Source: a virus
DNA: 64,000 nt
Direction: 5' to 3' (one strand)
Virus record (IMG/VR): IMGVR_UViG_3300043570_004127
Coordinates: 96,001-160,000 of that record
In this document: piece after piece, positions 25,347-60,123 of the stretch
Layout: each line of letters begins with the position of its first letter
How positions within the stretch are numbered: position 1 is the stretch's first letter
Translations under genes and position numbers: made by a program
Notes under the pieces: model-generated
Seen by the model: the letters and a program-made list of their open reading frames with translations, nothing else
What the model was told of the DNA's origin: nothing
Database searches by the model: none

Positions 25347-26633
25347 ATGACAATCCAGACATTTACAGCAGGACAAAGACTGACAGCGCTTCAGCTGAAC
25401 ACGCTCCAGGCAAGTGATTTTAATTTTACACGTAACGTTCGAAATGATTTGACGTACACTTTCGCCCTTTCAGATAAAGGTAAATTGGTAGAAAGCACTA
25501 ATGCTGGTGCGGCTGTTTTCACGATAGCCAATGACAGTTCTGTCGAATTTACCGTCGGCGACAGAATCGATGTTCTTCTTGCTTCTGTTGGCTCGGTAAC
25601 CATTTCTCCTGCCTCTGGGGTGACCCTGTATGCCGAGGGCGACATCACAACAGTTGCCTCAGCATGGACAAGGCTCACCCTTATCAAGAGAGCGGAAAAT
25701 TCCTGGGTTATGACCGGTACTGGAATGTCTGTCCAGACCGTGGAACTAGACGACCTTGCAGTCACGACTGCAAAAATCGCCAACCTCAACGTTACAACTG
25801 GAAAAATAGCAGATGATGCGGTTAACGGCGACAAAATTGCGGACTCTTCTGTAACCTCGGCACACATTGTTGATGGGACCATCGTCAACGGGGACGTCAG
25901 TGCTTCTGCAGCGATTGCTTATAGCAAATTGAATCTTGGGACGTCAATCGTTAATGCTGATGTGAGTGCATCTGCTGCGATTGATTATGCCAAGTTAAAT
26001 CTTGGCACATCAATTGTTAATGCTGACGTCAGTGCATCTGCTGCGATTGTTGACACAAAACTTGCAACCATCTCAACCGCCCTAAAGGTATCGAACTCAG
26101 CAACGACAGCAACGAATGCTAATACGGCTTCTGCAATTGTTGCCCGCGATGCTTCTGGCGACTTTTCCGCTGGAACCATTACTGCAAATTTGACAGGCAT
26201 AGCAACCTATACGGCGGAGTGGGTTCTTGGAGCAAATGGTTCTAGTCACTACACTTTTGCAGGACCAGGTTTCACTGGTTCTGAAGACGACCCCATCCTC
26301 CACCTGGTTAGAGGGCAAAAATATAAATTCACAAATACGATGGGAGCTCATCCGTTCAGAATCCAAAGCACTGTAAATGGTTCTACGGGAACTGCGTACA
26401 ATGACGGAATAACAAACAACGATGTTTCGAACGGAACATTAATTTGGGATGTTCAGTTTGACGCTCCTACTGTCCTTTACTACCAATGCACTGCTCACGG
26501 AACAATGGGTGGCGCAATTTATATTGTTAACGACACTGCTTCAATGATTGGTACTCGCACTGTGTTCGTTCAACAAGCTACGCCAACCGCTCTTGCGACT
26601 GGGGATATCTGGTTCCAGGTAACAGGACTCTAA
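25347..26633 (+). CDS. Tail fibre-associated protein: N-terminal baseplate anchor, shared docking module, repeats, cupredoxin-like C-domain
   Basis: QTFTAGQRLTA, YTFALSDKGKLV module, VTTAKIAD repeats, AHPF...YYQCTAHGTMGG. Confidence 0.7.
   Translation: MTIQTFTAGQRLTALQLNTLQASDFNFTRNVRNDLTYTFALSDKGKLVESTNAGAAVFTIANDSSVEFTVGDRIDVLLASVGSVTISPASGVTLYAEGDITTVASAWTRLTLIKRAENSWVMTGTGMSVQTVELDDLAVTTAKIANLNVTTGKIADDAVNGDKIADSSVTSAHIVDGTIVNGDVSASAAIAYSKLNLGTSIVNADVSASAAIDYAKLNLGTSIVNADVSASAAIVDTKLATISTALKVSNSATTATNANTASAIVARDASGDFSAGTITANLTGIATYTAEWVLGANGSSHYTFAGPGFTGSEDDPILHLVRGQKYKFTNTMGAHPFRIQSTVNGSTGTAYNDGITNNDVSNGTLIWDVQFDAPTVLYYQCTAHGTMGGAIYIVNDTASMIGTRTVFVQQATPTALATGDIWFQVTGL
25880..26062 (+). 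repeat. About 3 imperfect 66-bp tandem repeats (IVNADVSASAAIxxxKL)
   Basis: Seen directly: aatgctgaygtsagtgcatctgctgcgattg recurs. Confidence 0.8.
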
Positions 26634-26634
26634 T

Positions 26635-28557: not shown

Positions 28558-28794
28558 ATGTCAGACGCACCAAGATTCATCAACCCACGAGAAACACCAG
28601 ACGGATTCGAATGGTTTGCCTTTGTTGTAGATGGCGAAGTGGCTTGGTCGGAGCCTGTACCAATCCAAGAAGAAGCAAAAATTGCTGCACTTTTGTCTGG
28701 TGTGCAAGCGGTACGTCTTGCCGGAGATGAAAGATTCACGGTTATTTCTGGATACGGATACACGGATGGTGTATTCACTCCTCCGACTGTCTAA
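28558..28794 (+). CDS. Small fibre-associated hypothetical protein
   Basis: AGGAG RBS. FAFVVDGEV...G..Y.DG.F.PP. Confidence 0.6.
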   Translation: MSDAPRFINPRETPDGFEWFAFVVDGEVAWSEPVPIQEEAKIAALLSGVQAVRLAGDERFTVISGYGYTDGVFTPPTV

Positions 28795-28824: not shown

Positions 28825-29055
28825 ATGACAAGTCCATGGCAAGAGTATAAAAAAAAGCTCGGCGACACACGTCCGTGGGATTTGGTAAACCCACATATTG
28901 AACACGTTTCCGAGGACGTTTCATCAGCGCGATACGCAATATGTGAAGCGTGTCCAAGTTTGCTAAAACTTACCCACCAGTGCAAAGAATGTGGTTGCTT
29001 CATGAAACTAAAAGTAAAACTACCTGCAGCAGCTTGCCCGCTCGGCAAATGGTAG
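28825..29055 (+). CDS. Small Cys-rich protein (DUF6171-like, CxxC...CxxCGC...CPxxKW)
   Basis: RYAICEACP...QCKECGCFM..K..L..A.CPLGKW. Leaderless -10 TAGGAT. Confidence 0.75.
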   Translation: MTSPWQEYKKKLGDTRPWDLVNPHIEHVSEDVSSARYAICEACPSLLKLTHQCKECGCFMKLKVKLPAAACPLGKW

Positions 29056-30068
29056 TAAAAGAGAATTTAAATAAGTACAAGATAACCGATGCCCAAATAG
29101 ACCCATTCGGTTACTGTAACGCGAAGTGCTGGTTCTGCCCTGTCAGGTATCAAAAGAATCCCCCACATGCAGCAAAGCATATGCCGGTTGATTTATTGGA
29201 CAAGATATTTTCTGAGTTGATAAAAGAAAAAGAAAAACCAAACGGTGTAGTTGAAGCAAACTTTAATCATTTTTATACCGCTCACTACAATGAGATTTTG
29301 CTATACAAGCACTTGGACGAGATGCTGTATTTGGCCAAATGTTATGGGTTAAAAACCATGATACTTTCAAACGGTGTCAATCTCACCGAAGAAAAGGTGG
29401 AGATACTCCAACGACACAAAGACGTTATAAGCGGAATCAATTTAAACATTCCCGCATTTGAGGATGGTTTATGGCAGGAACGTTCAGGAGTCACAAGATA
29501 CGATTTTGACCATGTAAGACAAAACGTATTACGAACAATGGAAGCGTTTCCAGAATACACAGCAAATGGAGCGTTTTCAATAGGTGTAAATATACCCACC
29601 GCGCCGCACATGGAAGAAAATGGCGGACGGATGGAGATGCTCGAGAATGCACCAAAGATAGATTTGGACCCCTTGACAGGAGAATCTCCGACACAAGTCG
29701 CATTGGCTAAATCGCTATTTCCCGGTCTCACTGTTTATCCAGTGGAATCATTAATTGATAGGGCTGCGATACTGGCAGAACATAAAGTGATTGATAATGC
29801 CAAAGCAATTTTGAGGTACAACAAAGGCGATAAAACTAGAGTAGTTGGTTGTTCTAATGGAACAATTGGGCGAATATATGGCTGGCTGCATGTCAACGCC
29901 CTTGGGGAAGCGTTTCTCTGCTGTAACGATTATGACTTTGACTATACTTTTGGCAACATGAACGACAGCACACTCGACGAGATATGGCGTAGCGACGAAC
30001 ATGCCGCAATGATAGAGAGAGCCTTGGGTTCAATATGTGTGTCTTGCGCAAGCGCTATATGGAAATGA
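29049..30068 (+). CDS. Radical SAM protein with a SPASM/Twitch domain
   Basis: CNAKCWFC motif; C-terminal GC...G.AFLCC.D...FGN....L.EIW...CVSC. Start moved to ATG 29049. Confidence 0.9.
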   Translation: MVVKENLNKYKITDAQIDPFGYCNAKCWFCPVRYQKNPPHAAKHMPVDLLDKIFSELIKEKEKPNGVVEANFNHFYTAHYNEILLYKHLDEMLYLAKCYGLKTMILSNGVNLTEEKVEILQRHKDVISGINLNIPAFEDGLWQERSGVTRYDFDHVRQNVLRTMEAFPEYTANGAFSIGVNIPTAPHMEENGGRMEMLENAPKIDLDPLTGESPTQVALAKSLFPGLTVYPVESLIDRAAILAEHKVIDNAKAILRYNKGDKTRVVGCSNGTIGRIYGWLHVNALGEAFLCCNDYDFDYTFGNMNDSTLDEIWRSDEHAAMIERALGSICVSCASAIWK

Positions 30069-30069
30069 T

Positions 30070-30993
30070 ATGGCATCGATATTCATACAAATACCTTCTT
30101 ATAGGGATTTTGAATTAAACAAAACTGTTGCCAGCGCAGTGACCAATGCGAGCGGAGCAAACAAGCTTTCGTTTGGTATTCATAACTGCATTTTGTTTGA
30201 TGGCGAAATAGAAGTTAAAACAGATTACCCAGAATGGGTCACTATTAACTCGGCGACAAGTATTGCACCGCAAAACATAGGCCTACAGCAGGCAAGGTAT
30301 TTAGCAAACGAGTTTTACGACGGAGAAGACTACTACCTTCAAATTGACTCGCACATGCGATTTTTCGAAAATTGGGACGCATCACTCATCAACGATATAC
30401 GCTACTATCAAAACCTGGGCTTGCCTAAGCCACTTATTACTCAGTATCCGCCAGCTTATACATACAACGACGACGGAAAAGAAAACATTCAATTCAATCA
30501 GCCGTTTTATCAATGTGGAATCTGGTTTGGCGAGAAGGTAGAAAATTTTAAGGAAACCCTAATTCCCACACAGCAAGCTCGGGTTCTTTTTGATACTTGT
30601 GGATTTATTAAATCTGTTTCTGGCGGTTTTATATTCACACTCGGAAGTTTTGCAAAAGTTAAACCAAATCCAAAAATTGCCTTTTGGGGAGAGGAACCAC
30701 TGATTGCCGCAAGGGCTTTTACTCATGGATTCGACCTGGTGATGCCCTTCTCTCACAATGTGTCTCATTTATATCACTCTCAACAGACATTTGCCAAAAC
30801 ACGTCGCCACCACATATGGGGTGATTTTTCAGAAATCTGGGGGATGATGGATGCTGAATCCAGAACAGAATACAAGAGAATATTCACCGAACGAATAATT
30901 GGCGAAGGGGCATTAGGGACAGAACGCACCCTAGATGAATACGAGGAGTTTTCTGGTTTAAATTTCAGAGACGGAACCATAACCTCATTATGA
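30070..30993 (+). CDS. Gnt1/GT60-like polypeptide (hydroxyproline/Thr) GlcNAc transferase
   Basis: IFIQIPSYRD, YYLQIDSHMRF..NWD, F.GEE..IAARAFTHG.D, HLY are signature motifs of the Skp1-HyPro GlcNAc-T family. Confidence 0.85.
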   Translation: MASIFIQIPSYRDFELNKTVASAVTNASGANKLSFGIHNCILFDGEIEVKTDYPEWVTINSATSIAPQNIGLQQARYLANEFYDGEDYYLQIDSHMRFFENWDASLINDIRYYQNLGLPKPLITQYPPAYTYNDDGKENIQFNQPFYQCGIWFGEKVENFKETLIPTQQARVLFDTCGFIKSVSGGFIFTLGSFAKVKPNPKIAFWGEEPLIAARAFTHGFDLVMPFSHNVSHLYHSQQTFAKTRRHHIWGDFSEIWGMMDAESRTEYKRIFTERIIGEGALGTERTLDEYEEFSGLNFRDGTITSL

Positions 30994-31568
30994 AGAATCT
31001 CAAAAAGATAAGTGACGATATATATATTGTAAACCTTGTTAGCGGTCGACTTGCTGCGAGGATTATGGATTCCATAAAATTACTCGAAAAGAAAGAGCCA
31101 TGTGGAGGAAGTGAACGAAACCAGTTTACGACACATTCCATAAGTGATTCCGCCTGTGTTGGTGGAATAAGACTTACAACAATTCTGCAATCGATATTCA
31201 AGAGACTAACAAATCAATACTTTCTGAGTACTGGCGTAAGACTAGAAGTTCCATCGTTCCCGAATCAAAGCTGCAATATCAAGAGTCAAGTCAAAGGCCA
31301 ATCACACGGGGTGCATACCGATGGAGGGGACAAGGATTACGGAATTGGCAGGATTCTCCACTCGTCGGTTATATGCCTAAATGATGACTACGAGGGCGGG
31401 AGCACGCAGTTTTACCTAACTGGGACAATGGAAGAACCAAACATTGATATTGACATAAAACTCAAGGCAGGTCAAGCATTAATATTTGACGCGAATCTGA
31501 ACTATCATGGGGTTACCGAAGTCCTATCTGGGACTAGGTTTAGCTTGATTCAATTTTGGAGAGAGTAG
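30990..31568 (+). CDS. 2OG-Fe(II) dioxygenase (prolyl-hydroxylase-like)
   Basis: HTD...LNDDYEGG...HGV...RFS. Confidence 0.85.
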   Translation: MKNLKKISDDIYIVNLVSGRLAARIMDSIKLLEKKEPCGGSERNQFTTHSISDSACVGGIRLTTILQSIFKRLTNQYFLSTGVRLEVPSFPNQSCNIKSQVKGQSHGVHTDGGDKDYGIGRILHSSVICLNDDYEGGSTQFYLTGTMEEPNIDIDIKLKAGQALIFDANLNYHGVTEVLSGTRFSLIQFWRE

Positions 31569-31570
31569 TC

Positions 31571-32641
31571 ATGAATACAGATAGCGATAACAGATTCTAC
31601 GGAACGACACCAGATGTCCGCAATGACGAAACTGTGTCCGAAATCTTTAACATGCAATTTGAAGATTTGGGTGGTGGGGTAATTCGTTTCCCGGCAGCAA
31701 TAGATGTTGACAAAGACATGCTTTTACCGTATATAGATAAAAACTCAAAATCCGCGCACGAACAAAGATGGACGTGGGCCAAGGATGAAGAAGGCAATGA
31801 CTACGCAATAAACGAAGATGGCAACAAGTTTTCTCCAGAACAGGTAAAGATGGTTCCAGTAAGACTGCTTGAAGTAGTTAACTCTGGGACAGAGCCAGAG
31901 ATGATAGAAGTGTTTAGATACTGGGAAGACACTATTTACAAGTGTCTCCTGCGGTACATAGATATATTCCCAATGGTCCTTGGAACAATCTGGTGGAGAA
32001 CCAAGGGTCACGTAATGCGCTATGACGAGGGGGCATTCCTTGGCATACACAACGACAACGACTCAAATTACAGGGCCACAGGTGGCGAGCGATTTGTGCC
32101 GCGTGGACAAATACAGATGCGTCAAGTTGTGGCGGTGATGTTCTACATTAACGATTGTGTTGAAGATGAATCAGAACTAGATGGCACAAACTTCACTGGT
32201 GGGGAATTAGTTTTCCCATATCTCGGAATAAAGAACACTCCAAAAACCGGGGATGTTGTTATCTTCCCTGCAAACTACATTGCAACACATGGAGTTGAGC
32301 CAGTGAAAAAGGGCGTCCGATATGGATACCTTGAATTCTTCAGTCAAGGAAGCAGTCACGATGAAGTTGGAATTAACGTTTCAGAACCAGATAAATGTGA
32401 TGGCTGGTGTAGGCCACACTTCATAGATGCGCTTTATGACGACTACAAGCACTACTGCAAGCAAACCGAATTCATGGGGAATGGTGATTCAGCAAAAGAC
32501 GCAAACGGAATGTTTAAAGCAAATCCGGTTTATCAAAACAGAACGCTTGAAGGTGAAAACGGTCTAAAGAAGGCTTATTCACATTCCCAGGTTGTATACG
32601 ACAATGAGCAGCGCGGCAGGGAACACAGCAGCTTGTACTAA
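31571..32641 (+). CDS. 2OG-Fe(II) dioxygenase (LGGG subfamily)
   Basis: HND...FTGGEL.FP...FPANY..THGV...RY. Start moved to ATG 31571. Confidence 0.85.
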   Translation: MNTDSDNRFYGTTPDVRNDETVSEIFNMQFEDLGGGVIRFPAAIDVDKDMLLPYIDKNSKSAHEQRWTWAKDEEGNDYAINEDGNKFSPEQVKMVPVRLLEVVNSGTEPEMIEVFRYWEDTIYKCLLRYIDIFPMVLGTIWWRTKGHVMRYDEGAFLGIHNDNDSNYRATGGERFVPRGQIQMRQVVAVMFYINDCVEDESELDGTNFTGGELVFPYLGIKNTPKTGDVVIFPANYIATHGVEPVKKGVRYGYLEFFSQGSSHDEVGINVSEPDKCDGWCRPHFIDALYDDYKHYCKQTEFMGNGDSAKDANGMFKANPVYQNRTLEGENGLKKAYSHSQVVYDNEQRGREHSSLY

Positions 32642-33372
32642 GTGTTTTCTACGATACCAACGTGAACATAACCCTGCCCGGAATGCTGAACATCTGCTGC
32701 AAGACTATTTAGCTTGTTTTCTTCCTGAACCTCCATCTTTGCATCCCCTTGGCAGAACCACTGCAGATAAGAATTCCTTACCCCGGATGTGATTGGCTCA
32801 ACTTCATGACAGCCCATAAATGACGACGGATATATCAAAACCGAGCCAACTTTTGGACGTACGGTTATACCCCACGGCCTGAATCTTATATTTCCTCCCT
32901 CGTATTCCTCATTGAGGGCCATTGAACCAGTAAGGGTGTTGTGGAGCGGGAAGGTGTTCAGAACATTCCCTTCCTTGTCGTAAGGTAGGGCACAGTCGCT
33001 ATGCGGTCCAATAGTTTGACCAATTGAGTACGAAGCAATCTGCCCACCTGTTCTCCAGCCAATACACTCAATTGCTACTGGGAACGAGCGACAATATTCA
33101 ATTAGGCATCTATAAATGCCGTCATTAATCAAGGTTGTTATTTCTTTTGTGAATTCGGAGCCGTATGAAAGTCCATTAAACCTGGTTGGCATTTTTAATA
33201 CGTGCTCTTGCGTAACCGCGTAACCGCCATCATTGGTTAATGACTCAACATTCACGCCATGCGTTGCATCTAGATTTTCAGCAAAAATTCTTTCAAGATA
33301 TGCCTCGAAATTGGATGCGTCTACCACATCTTCAAACAGCATTACCCCGTTCCCAAGATGCTTCACAATCAT
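32638..33372 (-). CDS. 2OG-Fe(II) dioxygenase (LGGG subfamily)
   Basis: HSD...LNEEYEGG...HEV...RNS. Confidence 0.85.
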   Translation of the reverse strand: MIVKHLGNGVMLFEDVVDASNFEAYLERIFAENLDATHGVNVESLTNDGGYAVTQEHVLKMPTRFNGLSYGSEFTKEITTLINDGIYRCLIEYCRSFPVAIECIGWRTGGQIASYSIGQTIGPHSDCALPYDKEGNVLNTFPLHNTLTGSMALNEEYEGGNIRFRPWGITVRPKVGSVLIYPSSFMGCHEVEPITSGVRNSYLQWFCQGDAKMEVQEENKLNSLAADVQHSGQGYVHVGIVENT

Positions 33373-34241: not shown

Positions 34242-34259
34242 ACAGTGTATGATAGCCCA
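34242..34259. promoter_or_regulatory. Bidirectional overlapping -10 elements driving two divergent leaderless genes
   Basis: Plus strand: TATGAT (34248-53), 6 nt, ATG 34260. Minus strand: TATCAT (34254-49), 7 nt, ATG 34241. Confidence 0.6.
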
Positions 34260-49922: not shown

Positions 49923-49938
49923 TGATTTCTCCAGTCAT

Positions 49939-52900
49939 TTAATACGCTCCCATGATAGACGCAATTTCCACGTCGCTAGTGTTAGTCGAGCTGTTAACAA
50001 GAATCCAAGCACCGTCATAGTAAACAAACATTTCATTAGTCGTGCTCTTGAACCACATCTGGCCGTCTGCAGCGTTCGCTGGAGCGGCATCCTGGGTCAC
50101 AGCACCGATACCAGAAGCACCAATTTCAATCCAGTACGAGTCGTAGTAGACGAATGTAACTGCAGAATCTGACTCAAACCAAAAATCTCCGGTCGATGGC
50201 GATGGCGGAGCAGTAGTGCTGACCGTCATTGTTGCGCCAGCAGCTATTTCTGTGTAGTTTGTACCGTCGGATGTAGCTTCCCATCGGTCTATTGATTCAT
50301 TCCATCTAATGTCAACGTTTGGCTCGGTGCCTCTTTCGACAACAACTCCCGCATTTAGCGTTGGGGAACTAGTCACATTTGAGTTAAGCGTAATAATACT
50401 GTCGGCAACGTTCAGGTTTGCCTGACTTGTCGAAGTCTGACTACCAGTAACAACTAGGTTGTCAACCGTTATTGTGTTAAAAGTTACCGAGGATGAAGTT
50501 GCAACGTTTTGCCCAATGGAAATAGTAGGAGTTGCACCTTCGCCAGCGTTGTCTGTGATTGTTACACCAGTACCCTGTACCAGGTTTGCTACGTAACTAC
50601 CAGTTGTATCCGTTCCCAGAGCAACAGAGTCTGCAGCGATTGTCGCAGTAAGCGTTGCGTTTCCAAGATTAGTGAAAGTAACGGAACCACTCAAGTCTCC
50701 ACCGAGTGTGAGTATCGGCGAAATACCTGTAATCGTTGGACTTGTGAGAGTCTTATTCGTAAGTGTATCGGTTGTGTCTGTTCCGACGAGTTGGGTCGTG
50801 GCGTTTGGAAGAGAAATGATTCTGTCTGCGGTTGGGTCAATTGCAACAATCGTTGTCTCATAAGAGTCAGCAGTGGAACCCTCAAAAGTTATTGCACCAG
50901 CAACATACACCAAGAATGAACCTGAAGCATTGTTTGCTGCCGGCCCAACAGTTGGTTCGTATGTAAAAGTCGTGGAGTCTGGAACAGAGGTGATTGAATA
51001 AGTTCCGTTATATCCAGTTTGTGTTGCTCCGGAAACCGTTATTCTTGCGCCAACAGACAGACCGTGACCAACTGCTGTTACGGTTGCAAGTCCGGTTATG
51101 CCGCTATAGGCAATTCCTGTTGCGTTGACTTGCGCATTACCGATACTCATGTTTGCAAATGTCGGAGAATCTGTTGTTCCGATTGCTTGACCGATATTGA
51201 TTGTTGGGTTACCAGCTTCGGCAGCTGTTCCGTTTGTTAGAGAAACACCTGTTCCGGCATTGATTGAAGATACAAAGTTTCCGCTTGTGTCTGTTGATAA
51301 ATCGATTACATCTGGTACCCAAGCAGAACCATTCCATTTCAAGAACTCGCCCGATGCTGGAGATGGAGCGGTTACGTCTGAAAGCGCATCTAGACCATGA
51401 GTGCCTATTGAGGTTACGGTTCCAGAACTACCAGTTACATCTCCAAAAACATTTCCAGTCAGTGTTCCAGTTACGTTTCCTGCGACGTTTCCGGTTAGGT
51501 TTCCAGTTACGTTTCCATTTACGTCTCCGAACAATGTCGAGGTGACTCTTGCGAAAGTTACTGAGGCGTTAGTCCCAACGTCCTGACCAATTGAAATGGT
51601 CGGTACCGATGATGGACCAGTTCCGCTAGATACCGTAAGGCCTGTTCCAGCAACGAGTGAAGAAACATAGTCACCACTGGTGTCACTGCCAAGTGTGACT
51701 GCGTTTGGTGCGACTACTGCGTTTATGACAACATCTTGGGAGCCGTTAAACGTTACAGAGCCGCTCATGTCCCCTGTCAAACCAATTGAGCGACCAACAT
51801 AAAGAGTGTTGGCTGTTGAGGCGTTTCCTGTTAGCTCTGCAGTAATTCCTCCAGCGACAAAGTTTCCACTTCCATCGCGCATAACAATTGTGCTTGCCGT
51901 GTTATTTGGTGTTGCGTTAGAACCAACAGATACGTTTGCACCCTCGCCAGTTCCAGAAACTGTAATTCCCGTACCGACCGAAGCGGAAACGCTTTGTACG
52001 TAATCTCCAGTTGTGTTTGTACCTAATGGAATTAAAACATTATTTGTTGTAATACCAAGTACGCGACCATATCCGTCTATGCTCACAGCCTCTATGAAGT
52101 TGGACGAACCAGATACAGACGAGCTATTTGACTGAGCAATTGATGGGAGAGCAAGAACATTTTCTGTTATCTCCAAACCATTACCTGGCACCAGTACGGC
52201 CTTGCCGCTTACCTGTGACCAAACAATAGGCTCGGTGCCAACAACGTGCACCATTTCTTCTAGTTCGTTTAGGTATACACTGCCGAAAGATGTAAGAGCA
52301 AAAGTTTGCAACATGTTAACGTCGCCAGTTGCCACTCTTACTGATTTTCCGTACGTGACTTGACCGAATGTTGAGTTATCAAAGTCAACTGCTCTTGTCA
52401 ACTCCCATGTCGAAGTTGAGGTACCGGCTGCTGTGACTTTGTAAATTCCGTTATGGATGTTATTAGCTTGGTCTTTAATTAAGACGCGATAATTCAACGA
52501 TGCTGGTGCTCCGTCGATAGAAAGAACGCCGTTAGTTGTTGCTGTAAGTTTTGCTCCAACGCCAGTTCCGCCGTTTTTATCAGCGCTTCCATCGGTGTAT
52601 GTTGGAGAATTTGTGAGGGGTCCTGTTGTTGCCGCGTATACGTCGTTGTGCCACAGCTGTTGCCTCAATTTTGTTACTACTGTTGCCGTTGTCTCGACTG
52701 GTGAGTAAACGGAACCATCGTTTGTAAGTTCCCATACATCGGATGTTTCGTTGTATTGGAGCAGAACATTTGCTGATGTTCCACGCTCAATCTCAATACC
52801 GGCATTTTGAGATGGGGCTCCAGTTTCATCGTTATTGAGAGTGATGATGTTGTCGCCAATTTCCAAATTGGTTGTGTTCACATAGGAAACCGAACCAGAT

Positions 52901-54069
52901 ACAGTCAATGTTCCAGTAACAACCAAGTTGTCATCAACGGTTGTTGTTCCCCCACTTGAATTAAGTGTCAAACCACCGGATGTAGTGTCAATTGTGTTTG
53001 CATCTGTGACACCAACTCTTATTGCATCGAGATATGCTCCGGCAAATGTTGGGCTATCTGCAGTTGAAACAGCTTGACCAATGGATATTGTTGCGTTTGA
53101 ACCTTCACCTGGGGTGTGACTTATTGTTATACCGGTGCCACCGGTTACTTCTGTCATGTAGTTTCCGGTTGTATCGGTTCCTAGTGCTACAGAGTTTGGC
53201 TGAACGGCGGTGGTTATGGACACATCGCCAGAACCGTCAAACGCAACAGAGCCAGCAATATCGCCAGTGAGAGATATTGTTCTTGATGTCTGAAGAGCCG
53301 CAGCAGTCGAAGCGTTTCCTGTGAGATTTCCTGTTACGTCTCCAAGCACATGAGCGAATTGCACTGATGATGAAGTTCCGACTGCTTGTCCAATTGCGAT
53401 AGTAGGTGATGCTGATTCTCCGGAATTATTCGAAAGAGTTACACCGGTTCCAGCAACAAGTGAGGTCACATAGTCACCAGTTGTATCGGTGCCTAGGGTT
53501 ACAGAGTTAGGCTGAACGGTTGCCGTAATGTTTATGTTCTGTGAACCATCAAAAGATGCAGAACCAGCGACATCACCGCTGACTTCGATTGTTCGCGCAG
53601 TTTGCAAAGCACTTGCCGTGCTTGCGTTGCCAACAACCCCTGCGGTGACAGCAGCAAACGTGACCGACGAAGAAGTCCCAACGGCCTGGCCAATTTCAAT
53701 GGTCGGTGTAGCTTTCTCACCAGAGTTGTTGGTTAGTGTTACACCAGTTCCAGCGACAAGGTTCTGAACAAAGCTGCCTACAGTGTCATCCCCAAGGTTT
53801 ATTGGGTCATTTATCCAGGCGGTTCCGTTCCAGCGGAGGTAGTCACCGTTTTGTGCACTCGTTATGACTACGTCACCAAGCGCATCAAGGCTTGCGTTGT
53901 CAATACTTCCATAAAAATAAGGAAGGACATTCCATTGTGACGAACCATTTCCGAGCTTTATCTTGTTGGTGTTGGTTTCTAGACCGATTTCACCACCAGC
54001 GAGAACCGGGTTAGAGCTAGCCCAGTTCGTAGACGTGTCGCGACGGAAAAGAATTTTTTTATAAGCCAT
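49939..54069 (-). CDS. Long tail fibre with an Mtd_N/hyaluronidase-like N-terminus
   Basis: FRRDT..NW...NPVL..GE.GLETNT.KIK.GNG...W..LPY, LGTDTTG repeats, C-terminal GDxW repeats. Confidence 0.8.
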   Translation of the reverse strand: MAYKKILFRRDTSTNWASSNPVLAGGEIGLETNTNKIKLGNGSSQWNVLPYFYGSIDNASLDALGDVVITSAQNGDYLRWNGTAWINDPINLGDDTVGSFVQNLVAGTGVTLTNNSGEKATPTIEIGQAVGTSSSVTFAAVTAGVVGNASTASALQTARTIEVSGDVAGSASFDGSQNINITATVQPNSVTLGTDTTGDYVTSLVAGTGVTLSNNSGESASPTIAIGQAVGTSSSVQFAHVLGDVTGNLTGNASTAAALQTSRTISLTGDIAGSVAFDGSGDVSITTAVQPNSVALGTDTTGNYMTEVTGGTGITISHTPGEGSNATISIGQAVSTADSPTFAGAYLDAIRVGVTDANTIDTTSGGLTLNSSGGTTTVDDNLVVTGTLTVSGSVSYVNTTNLEIGDNIITLNNDETGAPSQNAGIEIERGTSANVLLQYNETSDVWELTNDGSVYSPVETTATVVTKLRQQLWHNDVYAATTGPLTNSPTYTDGSADKNGGTGVGAKLTATTNGVLSIDGAPASLNYRVLIKDQANNIHNGIYKVTAAGTSTSTWELTRAVDFDNSTFGQVTYGKSVRVATGDVNMLQTFALTSFGSVYLNELEEMVHVVGTEPIVWSQVSGKAVLVPGNGLEITENVLALPSIAQSNSSSVSGSSNFIEAVSIDGYGRVLGITTNNVLIPLGTNTTGDYVQSVSASVGTGITVSGTGEGANVSVGSNATPNNTASTIVMRDGSGNFVAGGITAELTGNASTANTLYVGRSIGLTGDMSGSVTFNGSQDVVINAVVAPNAVTLGSDTSGDYVSSLVAGTGLTVSSGTGPSSVPTISIGQDVGTNASVTFARVTSTLFGDVNGNVTGNLTGNVAGNVTGTLTGNVFGDVTGSSGTVTSIGTHGLDALSDVTAPSPASGEFLKWNGSAWVPDVIDLSTDTSGNFVSSINAGTGVSLTNGTAAEAGNPTINIGQAIGTTDSPTFANMSIGNAQVNATGIAYSGITGLATVTAVGHGLSVGARITVSGATQTGYNGTYSITSVPDSTTFTYEPTVGPAANNASGSFLVYVAGAITFEGSTADSYETTIVAIDPTADRIISLPNATTQLVGTDTTDTLTNKTLTSPTITGISPILTLGGDLSGSVTFTNLGNATLTATIAADSVALGTDTTGSYVANLVQGTGVTITDNAGEGATPTISIGQNVATSSSVTFNTITVDNLVVTGSQTSTSQANLNVADSIITLNSNVTSSPTLNAGVVVERGTEPNVDIRWNESIDRWEATSDGTNYTEIAAGATMTVSTTAPPSPSTGDFWFESDSAVTFVYYDSYWIEIGASGIGAVTQDAAPANAADGQMWFKSTTNEMFVYYDGAWILVNSSTNTSDVEIASIMGAY

Positions 54070-54314: not shown

Positions 54315-54902
54315 TTACCACCAATTAGCAATGGAGTACTTGGTGCCGCTTATTACTGGTTTTGCTTCATGCCTGAATGGTGCTCCAGATGGGAAAATTA
54401 CAACATCCCCGGCTACCGGCTCATAAGTAAAATTTAAATCCTGAAAATATAACTCTCCGCCTTCATAGTCGTCATTGAGGTAAGCAACTGCCGAGGCATA
54501 ACGTCTGGTTCTTTCACCATTGTCTAGATGGGATACATAGTGCTCGCCAATTGAGTATTTCAAGATTTGGTAACCAAGTGTTGAGTTGGATTTAATGCTA
54601 AGACCAAATTTGTTATTAAAGTGCTGCAGGCATGGCAGAACGCATTCGTGGATTTTGTTTGCCAGCATGACCTCTGCGGATGACTCATCGCCTTTCTGGG
54701 TCGGCGCTGGGGTGAACATTAGTTGGTTTGTCCTTACATCAGATATAAATACTTTGCCTTCGGTGTCGATAACCGTTGATTGACTCCAGTCGCCCTTGCT
54801 GTCTGTGGAAATATTTAATAATTCTGAAGCTTCTATTATCTCAAAAGGGTAAGCGATTGCGTTCCTGTAAATACATACACCATTGACATTGATGTGCTTC
54901 AT
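54315..54902 (-). CDS. 2OG-Fe(II) dioxygenase (prolyl-4-hydroxylase-like)
   Basis: YQILKY..G.HY..HLD...YLNDDYEGGELYF...FPS..PF.HEA.PV..GTKYS. Confidence 0.9.
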   Translation of the reverse strand: MKHINVNGVCIYRNAIAYPFEIIEASELLNISTDSKGDWSQSTVIDTEGKVFISDVRTNQLMFTPAPTQKGDESSAEVMLANKIHECVLPCLQHFNNKFGLSIKSNSTLGYQILKYSIGEHYVSHLDNGERTRRYASAVAYLNDDYEGGELYFQDLNFTYEPVAGDVVIFPSGAPFRHEAKPVISGTKYSIANWW

Positions 54903-54970
54903 TTTAGAACTCCGCTATCTCTACTGGTGCTACAAGTTATTTGAAAAACAATGTAGCTTGCAGACCAACC

Positions 54971-55435
54971 TTAAACCTCGTTGTTGCTTTGTGTTCTGCT
55001 TTCAATTGCCGTCTTTGCAAACTTATTAACAAAATTTGCTGCTGATTCAGTTGTTTTCAACTCTGACCAACTATCGCTAAATGAAAATTGACGCTGATAT
55101 TCTTGTTCATAATCTGCGACTATCAAGCCAACGAGCCTGGTCATCACTCCTTCTCGCTGATGGTCTGGATGGGTCATGGCCACCCATGGCTTTCTGATTC
55201 CATCCATCATGTAGTCGATGTACACACCAACTAGCAGTCCGTCATCATTTCTAAGCATGTTAAAAGTAAATGGCATCGCATAACCAGGGTTTATTGATGG
55301 CCAAATAAATTCCCTTACCATCTTGCTGAATCCTGGTTCCCCATATTCTCCAACAAGGTTTTCCATGGTAAGCCAGTCTGCAAAGTGGTCAAACTCCGCT
55401 TTAGGTGATATGTCTTGCCAATTATCATCACTCAT
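54971..55435 (-). CDS. GNAT-like acetyltransferase fold protein
   Basis: THPDHQREGVMTRL resembles GNAT motif A (V.P..R..G). Confidence 0.55.
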   Translation of the reverse strand: MSDDNWQDISPKAEFDHFADWLTMENLVGEYGEPGFSKMVREFIWPSINPGYAMPFTFNMLRNDDGLLVGVYIDYMMDGIRKPWVAMTHPDHQREGVMTRLVGLIVADYEQEYQRQFSFSDSWSELKTTESAANFVNKFAKTAIESRTQSNNEV

Positions 55436-55447: not shown

Positions 55448-56494
55448 TCAAATACATGCACATTCTCCCTTGATGCAAATTAGATAACACCCAGCGGTAG
55501 TTTCAGGCGGCGGCGGAGGCGGCGGAGGCGGCGGAGGCGGCGGCGGAGGAGGCGGAGGAGGAGGAGGAGGAGGAGGAGGAGGAGGAGCATCAGGTGAAGT
55601 TTCCGAACAGAAAACGGTGTCTGAATCTGCATAACCGAATCTTTGAACCTTTAGATATGCGGAACGCGATTCTGAATAGCCAAGTCCTGTCCAGCCTTGA
55701 CTTGTACCGAATGTGTCGTTAGGGCAAAGGCCGCCAGCACAGTCAAAATAGTTGTAGAAATATCCACCGCTAGAGTTTGCAACATATGTTTGGTCGGCTG
55801 GTTCTAAGTAATTGCTAAAGTTGATTCCAACACGTCCTAGTGTATCGTCGTCCATCGCAAATTGAGGGGTTGGTATTTTGCTATTCAACGGAGTGATTGA
55901 ACTAGACGCAGTCGAGTAGCTTCCAGTTCCAATTGTATTTACTGCAGCTACTCGAAACACATATGCGAACCCGTTGGTTAAGCCAGTTACCGTCACCGAC
56001 GTCAAAGTTGACGCAGCGCGACTAAACGTCGTCCATGTTGAGCCACTGTTTGAAGAATACTGAACCGTGTAGTCACTGATTAACGAACCAATCGATGCTG
56101 GAGCTATCCATGAAACAGCAGCCGTAGTATTTCCATAAGTGCTTGGAAGAGTTACTGTTGGTGCGAGTGGTGCGGAAGGAACCCCACCGAGAACAAGCGG
56201 ACTAGATGCTGTTGATACTGGAGATTCTGTCGCCGATGTGTCATCAATTGCAACAGCGGTAAAAGTGTAGGTTTGACCAGCAGTTAAACCAGAAGATATT
56301 GAAACACTTGCCGAGCTAGATGTTTCGGTTACTCCGTTGCTTGCAATGACCCTGTAACGAACTGCTCCCGATTTACCTTTGTACCCAGTATGCGTGATTG
56401 TTACAAGAGCATTACCAAGTGCATCGACGGCTCCAACTACTGCGGTTGGTGGTTCAATGAACTTTCCACCACTTGCCTGATTGCCCGGAATCAC
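55448..56494 (-). CDS. FN3-domain protein with a poly-Pro(27) run and a Cys-rich C-terminal peptide
   Basis: FN3 motif VTGLTNG.AY.FRVAAVN..GTG.YS; P27, then ETTAGCYLICIKGECACI. Confidence 0.8.
   Translation of the reverse strand: MIPGNQASGGKFIEPPTAVVGAVDALGNALVTITHTGYKGKSGAVRYRVIASNGVTETSSSASVSISSGLTAGQTYTFTAVAIDDTSATESPVSTASSPLVLGGVPSAPLAPTVTLPSTYGNTTAAVSWIAPASIGSLISDYTVQYSSNSGSTWTTFSRAASTLTSVTVTGLTNGFAYVFRVAAVNTIGTGSYSTASSSITPLNSKIPTPQFAMDDDTLGRVGINFSNYLEPADQTYVANSSGGYFYNYFDCAGGLCPNDTFGTSQGWTGLGYSESRSAYLKVQRFGYADSDTVFCSETSPDAPPPPPPPPPPPPPPPPPPPPPPPPPPPETTAGCYLICIKGECACI
55505..55585 (-). repeat. Poly-proline tract (27 CCT/CCG codons)
   Basis: (GGA/GGC)n run on the plus strand. Confidence 0.95.
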
Positions 56495-59400
56495 GACGCC
56501 GCCAAGTCACCTATAACAAACCACTCGTTTGCATTTTCTGTTTTGACTATTGTGCACGAAGAGTATCTGGCCCTCAAGTAAACACCCGGTGTTGCGAGGA
56601 GTGTCACTCCGGCACCTGCAAGAATTCTTGTCTTACCAGTTCCTCGTTGAATAACGGTGATGCTTGTACCAGTTCCAAATGCAACACTCGAAGCCGGTGG
56701 AACAGTCAGGTCATTGGCAGAGCTTGAGTCCATAATAATGATTGTCTCTGCAGCATCACCAATCGCAAGTGTGTAGTTGCCAGCCTTTGCACTGAGTGAT
56801 TGAACACCCGTTGTTGAAACTGAAGCTGTAGAACCTTCCCCCTGAGTATGGGAGATAGCAATACCAGTACCAGCCACTACTTCCAGCATGTAATTGCCAG
56901 TTGTGTCAGTTCCCAAAGCAATTGAACCGTTCAGTGCAACTGTTCCGCTCGCATCCGGAAGGCTTACAGTCCTATCTGCAGTTGGGTTAACAACGGTAAG
57001 TACTGTTTCAAACTCATCTGTTGTTGAACCCTCAAATGTGATGAAATGTGGTTCTGGAAGATAGATACCATGAATTCTCGGAGTTCCACCAGTAGCCGTA
57101 ATTTCTGGTCCATTAATAGTTGGCGTCGTAAGAGTTTTATTGGAAAGAGTTTGGGTTGTATCTGTTCCAACCAGAGTTGTGGTTGCATCAGGAAGAGTTA
57201 TAGTTCTGTCTGCAGTTGGGTCTGTTACAACAAGGGACGTTTCGTAATCGTCCGCGGTGGCTCCTTCAAAGATAACTCCGCCACCCACAGTTACACTTCC
57301 TGCAACAGTGAGATGACCTGGGTCAGAAATGGACGAAGATGCAAGAATTTGAGCTGAACCTTGTATCTCTGTTTTGCCACCACCAACTGCAGCGTTTGAA
57401 GTTACTCGCACGAACCTCGTTGCCTCTTGGCTTATCAATTCAACGGTGCCAGTGTTTGGTGCAATAAACCTTATTCCGCTAGCCGTTCCAGCATTATCAG
57501 CCAAAAGCGCACTTCGTGCTCTTCCGTCAGTAAAGTATAAATTTGTAGTTCCCTCTGTTACGTTGTCAGAGTTACCCGTTGTATCGGTTCCTAGGTTGAT
57601 TGGGTCATTGGTCCAATAGCTTCCATTCCATTTTAGAAAATCTCCCGATGCAGGGGAGTTGAAAGCCCGCACTGGACGAACATAGAGTGAGTTACTCTTT
57701 GCGGAAAAACCTTGTCCGCCGTCACCTAGATTTTCATATTTGGCTTGTGTTGCGCTGTGTTCCGTAGAGCTCCAGTAATTATTGCTAAGCAATCCAGGAA
57801 TGGTGCCAGCTTCTAAACTTTCGACTGCATAGAGTTCTTGTAACTCATCAATTGATGGAAGGAACCAGTCTGAAAAACCACCATATTCATATCCGGATGC
57901 GTATGCAGCCGCGCTAGTTGCGGAAACATTTCCAGACTGAGCAACAATGTCTATCGTGTTTTGAGCACCGAAGCCGAATCCGGTTGCATCTGCCCCAGAA
58001 ACCGCCAATGATTGGTTTCCACCAGTAGCCCAACTTCTTTGAACCTGGGACGCAGATGGTGCAACTTCGAAATACTTGCCAGTAGAGTTACCAGTTGTAT
58101 CTGGAGTAATGAAAATTATCCCGCCAGCCGGACCAGTCGCACCAATTTGATATGCGGTTGAAACATCTGGGAGGTCGCTAAGGCTGGTAAGGGATGCTGC
58201 AGATATGTCAGCCGTAGTTCCAATTTCTAAATATGCGCTACCGTCTTCCGTGATTTCCCACTTGTCAGATGTCTCGTTCCAGCGAAGCGCAACATTCGCC
58301 GAAGAACCACGTTCAACTTCAATCCCAGCGTTTTCCGTTGGGGCTGCAGTCACGTTGCTATTAAGAACAACGAGATTGTCGTCAACCATCAACTCTGTGG
58401 TGTTAATTGCTGTCGTTGTTCCAGAAACCGTCAGGTCTCCAGTTATTGTCAAATTCGCAAATGTAACAGATGCGCTTGTTCCAACTGCCTGACCAATTGC
58501 GATAGTCGGAGTCGCCGTTTCTCCAGAGTTATTGGAGAGGGTTACGCCCGTACCTGCAACGAGAGATGAAACGTAATCTCCAGTTGTTTTGACACCAAGG
58601 GCAACAGTGTTGTCTGGAAGCGTTACCGTCCCAGTAAATGTTGGAGATGCAAGCGGTGCTTTAAGGTCAAGCGCAGTTTGCGTTGCTGTAGATACTGGCT
58701 TGTTCGCATCTGATGTGTTGGTTACGTTGCCGAGACCAACCATCGTTGCCGAAACTCCAGAAACAGTTCCAGTGAATGTCGGGCTAGCGAGTGGCGCCTT
58801 ATCATTCAATTGTGTTTGAATTGCAGAGGTTACACCATCTACATAATTGAGTTCAACAGTTGAAAGAGTTGCCCCATCAAGAATGTTTAGCTCTGCAGCT
58901 GTAGACGTAACTCCAGTTAAGTCTGTCGGCGCGATAGATATATCTGACGAACCATTAAATGACTGTCCAGCAATATTTCTTGCTGTTTGCAGTGTAGTTG
59001 CAGTTGAAGCATTTCCAATCAGTGGAGCAGTAATCGCAGCAAACTGCACCGATGATGAAGTTCCAACTGCCTGTCCAATTGCAATAGTCGCATTCGAACC
59101 TTCGCCAGGGGTGTGTGTAATCGAAACGCCTGTTCCCTGCGTAAGGTCAGACATATAATTTCCACTCGTGTCGGTTCCAAGGGTAATTGAATTTATTTGG
59201 ACTGTTGCTGATATGGAAACATCTTGCGAACCATCGAAAGACACAGAACCCGATACATCACCCGATAAAGAGATTACTCGTGCCGTCTCCAAAGTTTCTG
59301 CTGTAGTCGCATTAATTGTTCCACCAAGTAAGTTTGTTACTGAGTCGTTATACCAGTCGTAACCGTCAAACGCAAGAACATCTCCCTCGGCTGCAGCATC

Positions 59401-60123
59401 TATGTATACGTTGTCTAGTTCATCCAGCAATGGGAACTCTGGAGTTAATGTAACTTGTTGCCACGAACCTGAATAGTATGTATAGAGTTCAAGCTCGCTT
59501 GAGTTGTACCAAAGGTCACCGACTCTTACCTCGTCGGTTGGCTCCGTGTCCGAAACAGTAATAAAGTGGATTGTTTCGTTAATCCAAGCAGAAGCGGAGT
59601 TCTTGTAAACCAGGAAATCCCCTTCTTCGGCATCGCTAATTGTTACGTCACCAATGTCGTTCAGGTTGTTGATTGTCGGAATTGAAGCCCACTCAACACC
59701 AACCGATGCCGAGTTATTTGCCTTGAGAAAGTATCCGTCGGTTCCAACGCCAAGTCTGAAAAGACCGTTACCGTCGGTTACAAGCAGGTCGCCTTTTGTC
59801 GTTAACTTGCTTACAAGTTCGTTTGCTTCATCAGCGTCGTTAGCTGTAAATACTGGGTAGATGACAGAGCCAATTTGGTGCTCTGAAGCGGTGGTGTCAT
59901 CCTGGGCTCTAACGAGAGTGAGTGTTGAACCAGATATGGTTGCAAGACACTTTTCTTCAGTGAGTGAAGACGGATTTATGACAACATAGAAAGGGATGCC
60001 AGCAATTGATGGCCATCCAGTGGTCGCCGCAATGTCAACAGTTGTCCCAACGTTAGTTAAGAGTGTTGTTGTAGTCGTATTGCGAGCCGCGCCCGAATAT
60101 TGTTTGCGTGTATATGCTGCCAT
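56491..60123 (-). CDS. Long tail fibre with an internal DUF1566/C-type-lectin-like domain and a C-terminal docking module
   Basis: LGTDTTG repeats; DWFLPSIDEL...YWSSTE...YVRPVRAF; C-terminus YTLAIGDA...VPPASSVAFGTG...WFVIGDL. Confidence 0.8.
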   Translation of the reverse strand: MAAYTRKQYSGAARNTTTTTLLTNVGTTVDIAATTGWPSIAGIPFYVVINPSSLTEEKCLATISGSTLTLVRAQDDTTASEHQIGSVIYPVFTANDADEANELVSKLTTKGDLLVTDGNGLFRLGVGTDGYFLKANNSASVGVEWASIPTINNLNDIGDVTISDAEEGDFLVYKNSASAWINETIHFITVSDTEPTDEVRVGDLWYNSSELELYTYYSGSWQQVTLTPEFPLLDELDNVYIDAAAEGDVLAFDGYDWYNDSVTNLLGGTINATTAETLETARVISLSGDVSGSVSFDGSQDVSISATVQINSITLGTDTSGNYMSDLTQGTGVSITHTPGEGSNATIAIGQAVGTSSSVQFAAITAPLIGNASTATTLQTARNIAGQSFNGSSDISIAPTDLTGVTSTAAELNILDGATLSTVELNYVDGVTSAIQTQLNDKAPLASPTFTGTVSGVSATMVGLGNVTNTSDANKPVSTATQTALDLKAPLASPTFTGTVTLPDNTVALGVKTTGDYVSSLVAGTGVTLSNNSGETATPTIAIGQAVGTSASVTFANLTITGDLTVSGTTTAINTTELMVDDNLVVLNSNVTAAPTENAGIEVERGSSANVALRWNETSDKWEITEDGSAYLEIGTTADISAASLTSLSDLPDVSTAYQIGATGPAGGIIFITPDTTGNSTGKYFEVAPSASQVQRSWATGGNQSLAVSGADATGFGFGAQNTIDIVAQSGNVSATSAAAYASGYEYGGFSDWFLPSIDELQELYAVESLEAGTIPGLLSNNYWSSTEHSATQAKYENLGDGGQGFSAKSNSLYVRPVRAFNSPASGDFLKWNGSYWTNDPINLGTDTTGNSDNVTEGTTNLYFTDGRARSALLADNAGTASGIRFIAPNTGTVELISQEATRFVRVTSNAAVGGGKTEIQGSAQILASSSISDPGHLTVAGSVTVGGGVIFEGATADDYETSLVVTDPTADRTITLPDATTTLVGTDTTQTLSNKTLTTPTINGPEITATGGTPRIHGIYLPEPHFITFEGSTTDEFETVLTVVNPTADRTVSLPDASGTVALNGSIALGTDTTGNYMLEVVAGTGIAISHTQGEGSTASVSTTGVQSLSAKAGNYTLAIGDAAETIIIMDSSSANDLTVPPASSVAFGTGTSITVIQRGTGKTRILAGAGVTLLATPGVYLRARYSSCTIVKTENANEWFVIGDLAAS

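Follow-up and report, generated by a model that had tools for sequence, protein, structure and literature searches.

The stretch of viral DNA described here, called the window throughout, is a 64-kb part of a viral contig of 79,489 bp (IMG/VR record IMGVR_UViG_3300043570_004127). It contains three tail-fibre genes that share a β-sandwich module of about 95 residues, three genes for proteins with FN3 domains and low-complexity tails, and neighbouring genes for predicted protein-modifying enzymes. Across related phages each type of tail tends to sit near its own type of enzyme, and therefore this phage probably modifies its own fibre accessories. More specifically, the FN3 proteins may be fibre-tip accessories on extended stalks that are tailored by a co-encoded GT60 glycosyltransferase, two 2-oxoglutarate (2OG) oxygenases and a GNAT-like acyltransferase, a composite that we regard as evenly poised between right and wrong. 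By the sequence comparisons its strongest arm is the pairing of Thr runs with GT60, and its least defined arm is the one involving GNAT. A first-pass annotation of the same DNA had divided these genes into three cassettes and proposed a logic like that of ribosomally synthesized and post-translationally modified peptides (RiPPs), in which virion-displayed FN3 proteins are precursors decorated by enzymes specific to each cassette.

The relation between tails and enzymes was surveyed in relatives of the phage. Searches that started from the module, GT60 or the radical SAM enzyme of the window gave about 150 related phage fragments or loci; the scoring set consisted of 80 non-identical pairs of a fibre gene and its downstream gene, enzymes were counted within 10 kb and associations were evaluated with the Fisher test. 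Gene content, order and co-occurrence are direct observations, and the association figures are raw counts on related, fragmentary contigs. Loci whose downstream protein carries at least four PPxF units have at least three oxygenase genes of the prolyl 4-hydroxylase (P4H) type in 31 of 36 cases, compared with 9 of the 28 non-PPxF loci (p = 1.7e-5), and a DUF6065 gene in 30 of 36 compared with 2 of 28. At the level of orthologues, two individual enzymes account for the contrast: orthologues of the oxygenase encoded at 40858-41523 (core oxygenase A) occur in 30 of 33 PPxF loci and 2 of 21 others, those of the oxygenase at 43158-43775 (core oxygenase B) in 27 of 33 and 1 of 21. A run of at least six Thr is accompanied by GT60 in every case (6/6 vs 6/66 without such a run, p = 6e-6). 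Tails with at least eight Cys are not significantly associated with the radical SAM enzyme (2/20 vs 1/52, p = 0.18). By these raw counts, enzyme content in relatives is not independent of tail type: polyThr goes with GT60, PPxF with the oxygenases and DUF6065, and a short Cys motif with GNAT. The idea of cassette-specific enzymes survives for GT60, the two core oxygenases and GNAT, and fails for the radical SAM enzyme and the Cys-rich tail. The grouping of polyThr with GT60 and the radical SAM enzyme, the Cys-motif–GNAT pairing and this failed link emerge from the present sequence survey.

Searching whole contigs extends the PPxF result. Four of five PPxF contigs contain core-oxygenase orthologues with 48–59% identity, including two apparent exceptions, and the fifth, a 14.6-kb fragment, gave no match. 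Five non-PPxF sister contigs yielded paralogue-level core-oxygenase matches or none; their tails are intein-like, another non-PPxF end or (PFGVFGFS)n. Within the distant 'SSAQDNFL' clade, PPxF members have orthologue-level core oxygenases and members with a Hint end or the Pro-poor PFGVFGF repeat lack them.

The enzymes themselves belong to families that would suit such a role. By Pfam, the window encodes a radical SAM/SPASM enzyme, a GT60 glycosyltransferase, about 12 P4H-type 2OG oxygenases and three proteins resembling glutathione peroxidase (GPx), as the first-pass annotation had claimed, and homologues of its GNAT-like protein score as GNAT. Twelve genes have 2OG-oxygenase Pfam matches, nine to PF13640 above the cut-off, two (36943 and 43158) just below it and one (36045) to PF13759. 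The pattern HxD...H...R/K is present in 11 of the 12, with the usual family ending H...G[VTI][RK] in about nine, so that profile match, iron triad and basic 2OG-binding residue agree on a family of prolyl and lysyl hydroxylase type. All of the closest solved relatives are protein prolyl or lysyl hydroxylases (P4H, P3H1 and LH3). There is precedent for such a substrate, as the P4H of chlorella virus PBCV-1 hydroxylates viral Pro-rich repeats (PMC3634087), and the virion proteome of a cyanomyovirus included a 2OG 'prolyl 3,4-dihydroxylase' (PMC12801897). Our literature search found no paper that links phage oxygenase banks to a protein substrate or describes hydroxylation of a phage fibre.

The GT60 arm can be followed across more distant loci. 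Of 23 distinct GT60 loci, 17 have a same-strand gene for a protein with a run of at least six Thr no more than 4 kb upstream, at GT60 identities of 40–74%. The product of gene 30037 matches the PF11397 profile above its cut-off and has the DxH metal motif of the family; a sequence search of solved structures returned nothing useful for it. In protists, mucin-type O-GlcNAc on Thr-rich domains is initiated by enzymes of this family (PMC8724618, PMC3769586). The family also includes the enzyme that adds GlcNAc to hydroxyproline (Hyp) of Skp1, and the mucin-type reading fits better here because GT60 tracks Thr runs and not PPxF. Homologues of the radical SAM enzyme adjoin GT60 in about 12 loci, and on these comparisons the enzyme tracks GT60 and polyThr, not the Cys-rich tail. 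The window's copy has the cluster motif and C-terminal SPASM domain of its family, and its true start is probably near position 29049 (MVVKEN). In three very different phages, represented by loci L141 (9026-11020), L158 (8813-11029) and L142, the radical SAM/SPASM enzyme has a fused N-terminal domain of about 330 residues that Pfam does not recognize. These fusion genes directly follow genes for proteins with Thr runs of up to 28, next to fibres otherwise unrelated to those of the window. An HDSD motif in the fused domain suggests that it is perhaps a glycosyltransferase, and the N-terminus of the L158 fusion carries a DUF6171-like Cys motif resembling the product of window gene 28825-29055.

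These data bear directly on a strict RiPP-like system, in which the radical SAM/SPASM enzyme would make thioether cross-links of the sactionine type in the 12-Cys tail and each tail would be a precursor peptide for the enzymes of its cassette. SPASM radical SAM enzymes do typically modify peptides, the weak partial NCBIfam matches of this one include peptide maturases, and its gene lies about 0.5 kb after the gene for the Cys-rich FN3 protein. The proposed link to the Cys-rich tail is nevertheless not supported by the relatives: besides the lack of association reported above, L005 has the same Cys-rich domain with neither radical SAM enzyme nor GT60, the upstream polyThr protein of L141 was not flagged as Cys-rich, the fusions of L142 and L158 also follow polyThr proteins, and many homologues of the enzyme occur in phages that have none of these genes. 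Pfam and NCBIfam recognize only Radical_SAM and SPASM in the protein and no RiPP recognition element (RRE) or PqqD-like domain, although divergent RREs can escape such profiles. Nor do the substrates resemble a short precursor with a released core, since the candidates are multidomain FN3 proteins of 267–628 residues, and Pfam scans of genes 28950-45268 and 54315-55435 revealed no protease or exporter. With large, folded structural proteins as substrates and nothing to suggest a leader, a recognition element or release, RiPP-like is the wrong frame, and we consider a strict system of this kind very improbable. Maturation of glycoproteins of the extracellular-matrix type, or the glycosylation of mycobacteriophage virions, offers a closer analogy.

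The third pairing involves the protein encoded directly after the third FN3 gene. This 154-residue protein has no Pfam or NCBIfam match of its own, and the position of motif A reads QREGVM. Homologues in L105, L017 and L114 pass the Pfam GNAT cut-offs and carry QRKGIG as motif A, and the language-model neighbours of the window protein are all GNAT with a very high score. As in the window, the homologues in L004, L017, L105 and L114 (E 1e-12 to 1e-14 against the window protein) are encoded directly after a protein whose end consists of a low-complexity spacer and the motif C..C...CC..C...C. These are 4 of the 6 relatives surveyed, of which one had no usable upstream open reading frame (ORF) and one a doubtful frame.

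A different view is that the enzyme genes form an accessory or secondary-metabolite island that merely adjoins the fibre genes, with enzymes acting on small molecules or host targets and tails that serve as unmodified stalks, namely polyproline-II rods and Thr-rich linkers. This view has a published precedent in phage Syn9, where Iyer, Abhiman, de Souza and Aravind interpreted an equivalent array (gp41-gp54; 10 dioxygenases, a dUTPase-fold protein and halogenases) as secondary-metabolite machinery in 2010 (PMC2938197). The window, with 12 oxygenases and DUF6065, has an array of the same type: in both phages tandem, non-identical classical 2OG-Fe(II) dioxygenases are combined with a dUTPase-fold protein with a conserved Cys, C37 in DUF6065, directly downstream of tail-fibre genes. 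Syn9 differs in having tryptophan halogenases and no PPxF, polyThr or FN3-tail proteins, and whereas secondary metabolites were proposed as its products (PMC2938197), the oxygenase orthologues here track a candidate protein substrate. Placement in an island does not by itself predict that three tail types each track a different enzyme family, or that in the 'SSAQDNFL' clade the core oxygenase orthologues accompany PPxF tails. Furthermore, Pfam scans of the island genes found no nonribosomal peptide synthetase, polyketide synthase, halogenase, transporter or JmjC protein; the island proteins 37614, 40316 and 41578 match no family. On balance we think an unrelated island unlikely, while counting it a serious contender.

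Several observations, some of which also suit an island, weigh against our composite. At least three oxygenases occur even in the nine non-PPxF loci mentioned above, and about 12 oxygenases far exceed three candidate substrates, so that most of them are unexplained; about ten of the twelve, together with the three GPx-like proteins, have no role in our proposal. The link of DUF6065 to PPxF is about as tight as that of the two core oxygenases, yet this protein has no obvious protein-modifying fold. Its model (predicted local distance difference test score, pLDDT, 82) matches dUTPases in Foldseek (E 1e-4, target-normalized template modelling score mostly 0.55-0.76), which points to a nucleotide-enzyme fold, and because such a protein tracks PPxF so tightly, lineage confounding would look alike. 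For DUF6065, tblastn against cultured phages gave no match and a sequence search of solved structures nothing useful. On the module tree just three independent contrasts are well supported, which is not enough for a test, and shared ancestry could therefore produce the associations between tails and enzymes. Enzyme absences are weak evidence because the relatives' contigs are all fragments, 13–60% complete. Six GT60 loci have no upstream Thr run. In Syn9 (L159) the proteins between fibres and array, gp36, gp38 and gp39, have long C-terminal regions that are Gly-rich and not Pro-rich. Cassette 1 breaks the docking pattern discussed below, with an N-terminal module in its fibre and an FN3 protein that lacks the GGK motif. 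Finally, the FN3-tail family is in no cultured phage of a 50,697-record collection at the tblastn sensitivity used, where the low-complexity filter masks repeats: the 45272 product had no match, the 55448 product one weak FN3 match, and a distant PPxF protein from L068 two weak FN3 matches.

The candidate substrates are well defined. Pfam fn3 scores above its cut-off in all three genes downstream of module genes, and the junctions are tight: TAA-T-ATG (1 nt) in the first cassette, TAA-CTT-ATG (3 nt) in the second and an overlapping GTGA (4-nt overlap) in the third. This agrees with the earlier description of a module gene immediately followed by an FN3 gene, and counting likewise confirms the described tails of Thr runs plus 12 Cys, (PPxF)19, and P27 plus 4 Cys. 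The 26635 product has eight Thr runs of 4–15 residues; all of its 12 Cys lie after residue 504, and this Cys-rich region includes a conserved domain, SYEYW..GCPG..GGYNGAYR.G.CGY, that recurs in L005, L017 and L021. The 45272 product has its 19 PPxF units at residues 191-267; at the DNA level the array is only 76–82% regular, so that it is maintained as protein sequence and is no recent slippage product. In the 55448 product P27 is followed by a 17-residue end, ETTAGCYLICIKGECACI, that holds the 4 Cys. In PHROG, the FN3 parts match minor and major tail proteins.

In relatives, the gene after the module fibre usually encodes the N-terminal motif K-D-S-G-G-K-K-P-x-x-P or a variant of it, and in an alignment of the downstream proteins G12, G13 and K14 are invariant; FN3 protein 1 lacks this GGK motif, which the other two FN3 proteins of the window have. 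One to four FN3 domains follow, and then (PPxF)n with up to about 27 units, often with an ...F-K end or a Cys-rich domain after it. On this comparison (PPxF)n is an ancestral and widespread trait of the family. The notion that each cassette has a different kind of tail is accordingly not supported: the window's tails are variants, as the PPFFPPEF remnant in the 26635 product indicates, and P27 corresponds to (PPAPSF)5, (PVDPGF)3 or (PPPS)4 in orthologues. Our literature search found no published account of an FN3-(PPxF)n family or of PPxF fibre proteins. Other ends exist as well. In a sister clade (L054:10922-12664, and also L050, L056, L059 and L075) the protein after the module fibre ends in an intein-like (Hint) domain, with Pfam Intein_splicing at E 5e-6 and thus below the cut-off, which replaces the PPxF tract or, in L053, follows it. 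Contig L055 (8303-9112 and 2404-2892) has the Pro-poor variant (PFGVFGFS)n ending in FGFR, and only a weak paralogue-level oxygenase match.

The module is what ties these proteins to the fibres. Its three copies lie in the products of 25347-26633, 46079-46858 and 56491-60123. By BLASTP the C-terminal copies of the latter two are 58% identical (E 1e-29), and the copy in the first (residues 36-124) shares 39% (E 8e-15) and 28% (E 1e-3) identity with them. A hidden Markov model (HMM) built from the three copies, run on six frames of the 79,489-bp contig, found no fourth, the next match having E > 2, so the claim of one module in exactly three genes holds, with the correction that the copy in gene 25347 is N-terminal and not C-terminal. 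The homologue of this gene in L005 (10001-11179) has two modules, at residues 35-127 and 295-392, and its FN3 gene follows the C-terminal copy; by this comparison the window's gene has lost its C-terminal copy and gained a different C-terminal domain. The gene also holds a 66-bp tandem repeat (window 25893-26049; 2.4 copies, 84% matches) that encodes IVNADVSASAAI.Y.KLNLGTS repeats, and similar 'IVNADxxASAAI' units are present in the 46079 product and in relatives.

A widespread 'minor tail protein' family, phrog_8780, which is found in 250 cultured phage records, mostly of Gordonia phages, has the module as its C-terminal domain. In 84 related loci (80 from IMG/VR and 4 others) the module stands at the extreme C-terminus of fibres of 164-1817 residues. 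The module gene gave nothing useful when compared by sequence with solved structures. In the AlphaFold model of the 46079 product, pLDDT exceeds 90 for residues 160-259, and this modelled fold superposes with VIA-align on the C-terminal domain of the Pa223 capsid spike at Z 13.4. The KP1 baseplate protein, CBA120 TSP4 residues 80-180 and T4 gp10 residues 46-149 follow at Z 8-10; for gp10 and TSP4 the values are Z 8.0-8.9 with root-mean-square deviations of 2.7-3.0 over 87-91 residues, a level at which unrelated common folds also score (Z of about 8). The model is thus superposable on the N-terminal domains of gp10 and TSP4, which are β-sandwiches of the attachment ('XD') type. It is through these domains that gp10 and TSP4 hold other fibres or spikes. 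By analogy with them, and given the nearly universal tight coupling to a downstream gene with a conserved N-terminal GGK-P motif, a docking role for the module is a reasonable proposal. Complex prediction for the module (residues 150-259) and the downstream FN3 N-terminus (residues 1-100) scored zero, well below the mark set for it, and was counted neither way. The pairing of module and next gene is older than the FN3/PPxF family, because it also occurs in cultured phages of unrelated hosts: in Gordonia phage Lilbeanie (L002, gp35-gp36) and Variovorax phage VBv52 (L003) a fibre ending in the module is immediately followed by a small non-FN3 protein that has no Pro-rich tail.

This position invites comparison with the tail-fibre assembly chaperones. 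T-even gp38 and the Tfa proteins of Mu, P2 and lambda are small proteins encoded right after the distal fibre gene, and gp38 and Tfa bind the fibre tip. The FN3 proteins could accordingly be chaperones of this type that act on the fibre tip during folding and need not stay on the virion, with tails that serve assembly. The tight coupling directly downstream of the fibre gene is the classical location of Tfa or gp38, the small proteins of Lilbeanie and VBv52 follow the same layout, and the solved structures matched by the module's fold include a 'chaperone-substrate complex', 6o38. Arrays of FN3 domains, stalks that are long and rigid, and Cys-rich ends, however, typify exposed surface proteins rather than chaperones; the PHROG matches of the FN3 parts are to tail proteins, and we found no sequence or fold homology between the FN3 proteins, with their low-complexity stalks, and gp38 or Tfa. 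We judge a chaperone function improbable; it is compatible with modification of the tails and competes only with the adhesin part of our explanation. The gp38 of phage S16 reportedly uses polyglycine-II helices, whose geometry is said to be that of polyproline-II.

The features of the locus are collected in Table 1. Cassettes 1 and 2 converge on one shared enzyme island of about 17 kb, whose convergent genes meet at 32638-32641, and for this reason the borders of the cassettes are arbitrary. The oxygenase islands of relatives also contain GPx-like genes, which track neither PPxF nor Cys-rich tails; a role of their products as disulfide catalysts for Cys-rich tails was considered and dropped, as no association was seen (7/24 vs 10/40).

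Table 1. Fibre genes, FN3 genes and neighbouring genes in the window (coordinates in nt of the window)
Feature	Position	Strand	Remarks
Tail-fibre protein, 428 aa	25347-26633	+	Module at aa 36-124; C-terminal part related to 'baseplate wedge tail fibre connector' family
FN3 protein 1, 628 aa	26635-28521	+	N-terminal domain, 2 FN3, eight Thr runs, PPFFPPEF remnant, 12-Cys C-terminal region
Conserved 78-aa protein	28558-28794	+	Also at this position in L005 and L007
DUF6171-like small Cys-motif protein, 76 aa	28825-29055	+	Pfam PF19668 E 2.6e-5, just below cut-off
Radical SAM enzyme with SPASM domain	28950-30068	+	CxxxCxxC = CNAKCWFC; Radical_SAM E 1.3e-9, SPASM E 1.2e-9
GT60-family glycosyltransferase (PF11397)	30037-30993	+	Pfam E 4.8e-36, 125 bits vs cut-off 21; IDSH (DxH) in LQIDSHMRF
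Two P4H-type 2OG-Fe(II) oxygenases	30990-31568, 31556-32641	+	Pfam
Distal island, six genes with 2OG match (32638, 33369, 34580, 36045, 36943, 38999)	32638-39616	-	Pfam; 36045 is PF13759
GPx-like protein	35437-36048	-	Lacks NVAxxCG catalytic Cys, which the other two GPx-like proteins keep
Two island proteins of no assigned family	37614-38348, 38335-38616	-	ORFs
DUF6065 protein	39619-40323	-	dUTPase-like fold (model), invariant Cys37; co-occurs with PPxF tails
Core PPxF-linked oxygenase A	40858-41523	-	Closest solved relative Bacillus anthracis prolyl 4-hydroxylase, PDB 3itq, E 3.8e-5
Core PPxF-linked oxygenase B	43158-43775	-	Closest solved relative human prolyl 3-hydroxylase 1, PDB 8k0e, E 1.2e-4
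Two GPx-like thioredoxin-fold proteins	43803-45268	-	NVAxxCG-type Cys; directly after FN3 gene 2
FN3 protein 2, 267 aa	45272-46075	-	N-terminal SGGKKPTAP, 2 FN3-like domains, (PPxF)19 ending RFK
Short fibre protein, 259 aa	46079-46858	-	Module at aa 160-259
1376-aa fibre	49939-54069	-	Starts with Mtd_N domain (major tropism determinant N-terminal), E 4.9e-12
P4H-type 2OG oxygenase	54315-54902	-	Pfam E 1.9e-16
GNAT-like protein, 154 aa	54971-55435	-	Directly after FN3 gene 3
FN3 protein 3, 348 aa	55448-56494	-	N-terminal IPGNQASGGKF, 2 FN3, middle domain, P27, C-terminal CYLICIKGECACI
Long fibre, 1210 aa	56491-60123	-	Lcl_C domain at aa 731-819; module at aa 1112-1210

In the genome, genes for portal, large terminase and tail sheath are followed by a 1671-aa ORF with no PHROG match and then by the long tail-fibre region. 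One fibre gene product is 44% identical to virion structural proteins of cyanomyoviruses, among them S-RSM4 and S-PM2. An identity as a T4-like cyanophage was considered and rejected: the fibres share cyanomyovirus domains, but the PHROG matches of portal, terminase and sheath are to generic myovirus families with no sign of a T4-like module, and for this reason we do not call the phage T4-like. Megablast of window positions 44000-50000 against phages gave no match. The portal gene (483-2735, minus strand) is an apparent fusion to a head-morphogenesis (Mu F-like) domain, with phrog_2662 at residues 37-747 and phrog_2468 at residues 500-747.

Returning to the composite of stalks and tailoring enzymes, we infer its virion location, its docking and every chemical step from sequence. 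The FN3 proteins would begin with a short docking motif (GGK..P), continue with FN3 spacers and a low-complexity stalk of (PPxF)n, polyPro or polyThr, and sometimes end in a small Cys-rich domain or knob, an adhesin-on-stalk layout in the position that gp38 or Tfa takes after a fibre gene. GT60 would add O-linked N-acetylhexosamine to the Thr runs in the manner of mucins, and the radical SAM/SPASM enzyme and the DUF6171 protein probably belong to this pathway too. The P4H-like and P3H-like oxygenases, which are of collagen type, may hydroxylate prolines of the (PPxF)n stalk, with a putative involvement of DUF6065, and GNAT may acylate the protein that ends in a spacer and short Cys motif.

Some of these steps have a partial counterpart elsewhere. 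PBCV-1 likewise combines a viral enzyme of the P4H family with viral proline-rich repeats, (PAPK)n (PMC3634087); that case concerns a eukaryotic giant virus and a single enzyme, the present one a tailed phage that has about 12 predicted oxygenases and whose fibre-associated FN3 protein bears an aromatic-proline repeat. The protist GT60 polypeptide alpha-GlcNAc transferases that act on mucins of Dictyostelium and T. cruzi, or as Gnt1 together with PhyA on Skp1, share PF11397 and the DxH motif with the phage enzyme (PMC8724618, PMC3769586), next to which Thr-rich, mucin-like candidate acceptors are encoded. Here, however, the setting is a bacterial cytoplasm that has no Golgi, and the frequent radical SAM/SPASM partner has no protist counterpart. 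Mycobacteriophages glycosylate the C-termini of their capsid and tail-tube proteins (Freeman et al. 2023, PMC10527164, as cited in PMC12619734). There, too, phage-encoded glycosyltransferases act on C-terminal regions of the phage's own virion proteins, as we propose here, although the glycosyltransferase families are different, the targets are the capsid and tail tube, the modification was demonstrated by mass spectrometry, and no hydroxylase or acyltransferase arm is known for them.

If all arms operate jointly, large aquatic phages might run a virion-protein tailoring factory in which fibre-tip stalks are matured like eukaryotic extracellular-matrix proteins, by hydroxylation, O-glycosylation and acylation. 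Dedicated oxygenases would then hydroxylate the aromatic-polyproline stalk at Pro-3 and Pro-4, as happens in extensins or mussel-foot proteins, GT60 would O-glycosylate the mucin-like polyThr stalk, the radical SAM enzyme would further alter its sugar or backbone, and GNAT would acylate the Cys-motif tip. We put this forward tentatively, as a possible but doubtful extension. If it is true, the dioxygenase banks of cyanophages and lake phages would exist mainly to tune adsorption organelles.

Tandem 2OG-oxygenase banks in cyanophages have been known since 2007-2010 with no substrate, and secondary metabolism is the only published proposal that we found (PMC2938197). The locus and its relatives now offer candidate pairs of substrate and enzyme: two oxygenases for (PPxF)n, GT60 together with the radical SAM enzyme for the Thr runs, and GNAT for the Cys-motif end. 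The aromatic-polyproline repeat is a new protein material. If the pairs are confirmed, a virion protein of a tailed phage would for the first time be known to undergo prolyl hydroxylation, and virion glycosylation in phages would gain a second example with a different mechanism. Phages would then vary their means of host recognition by chemistry in addition to sequence.

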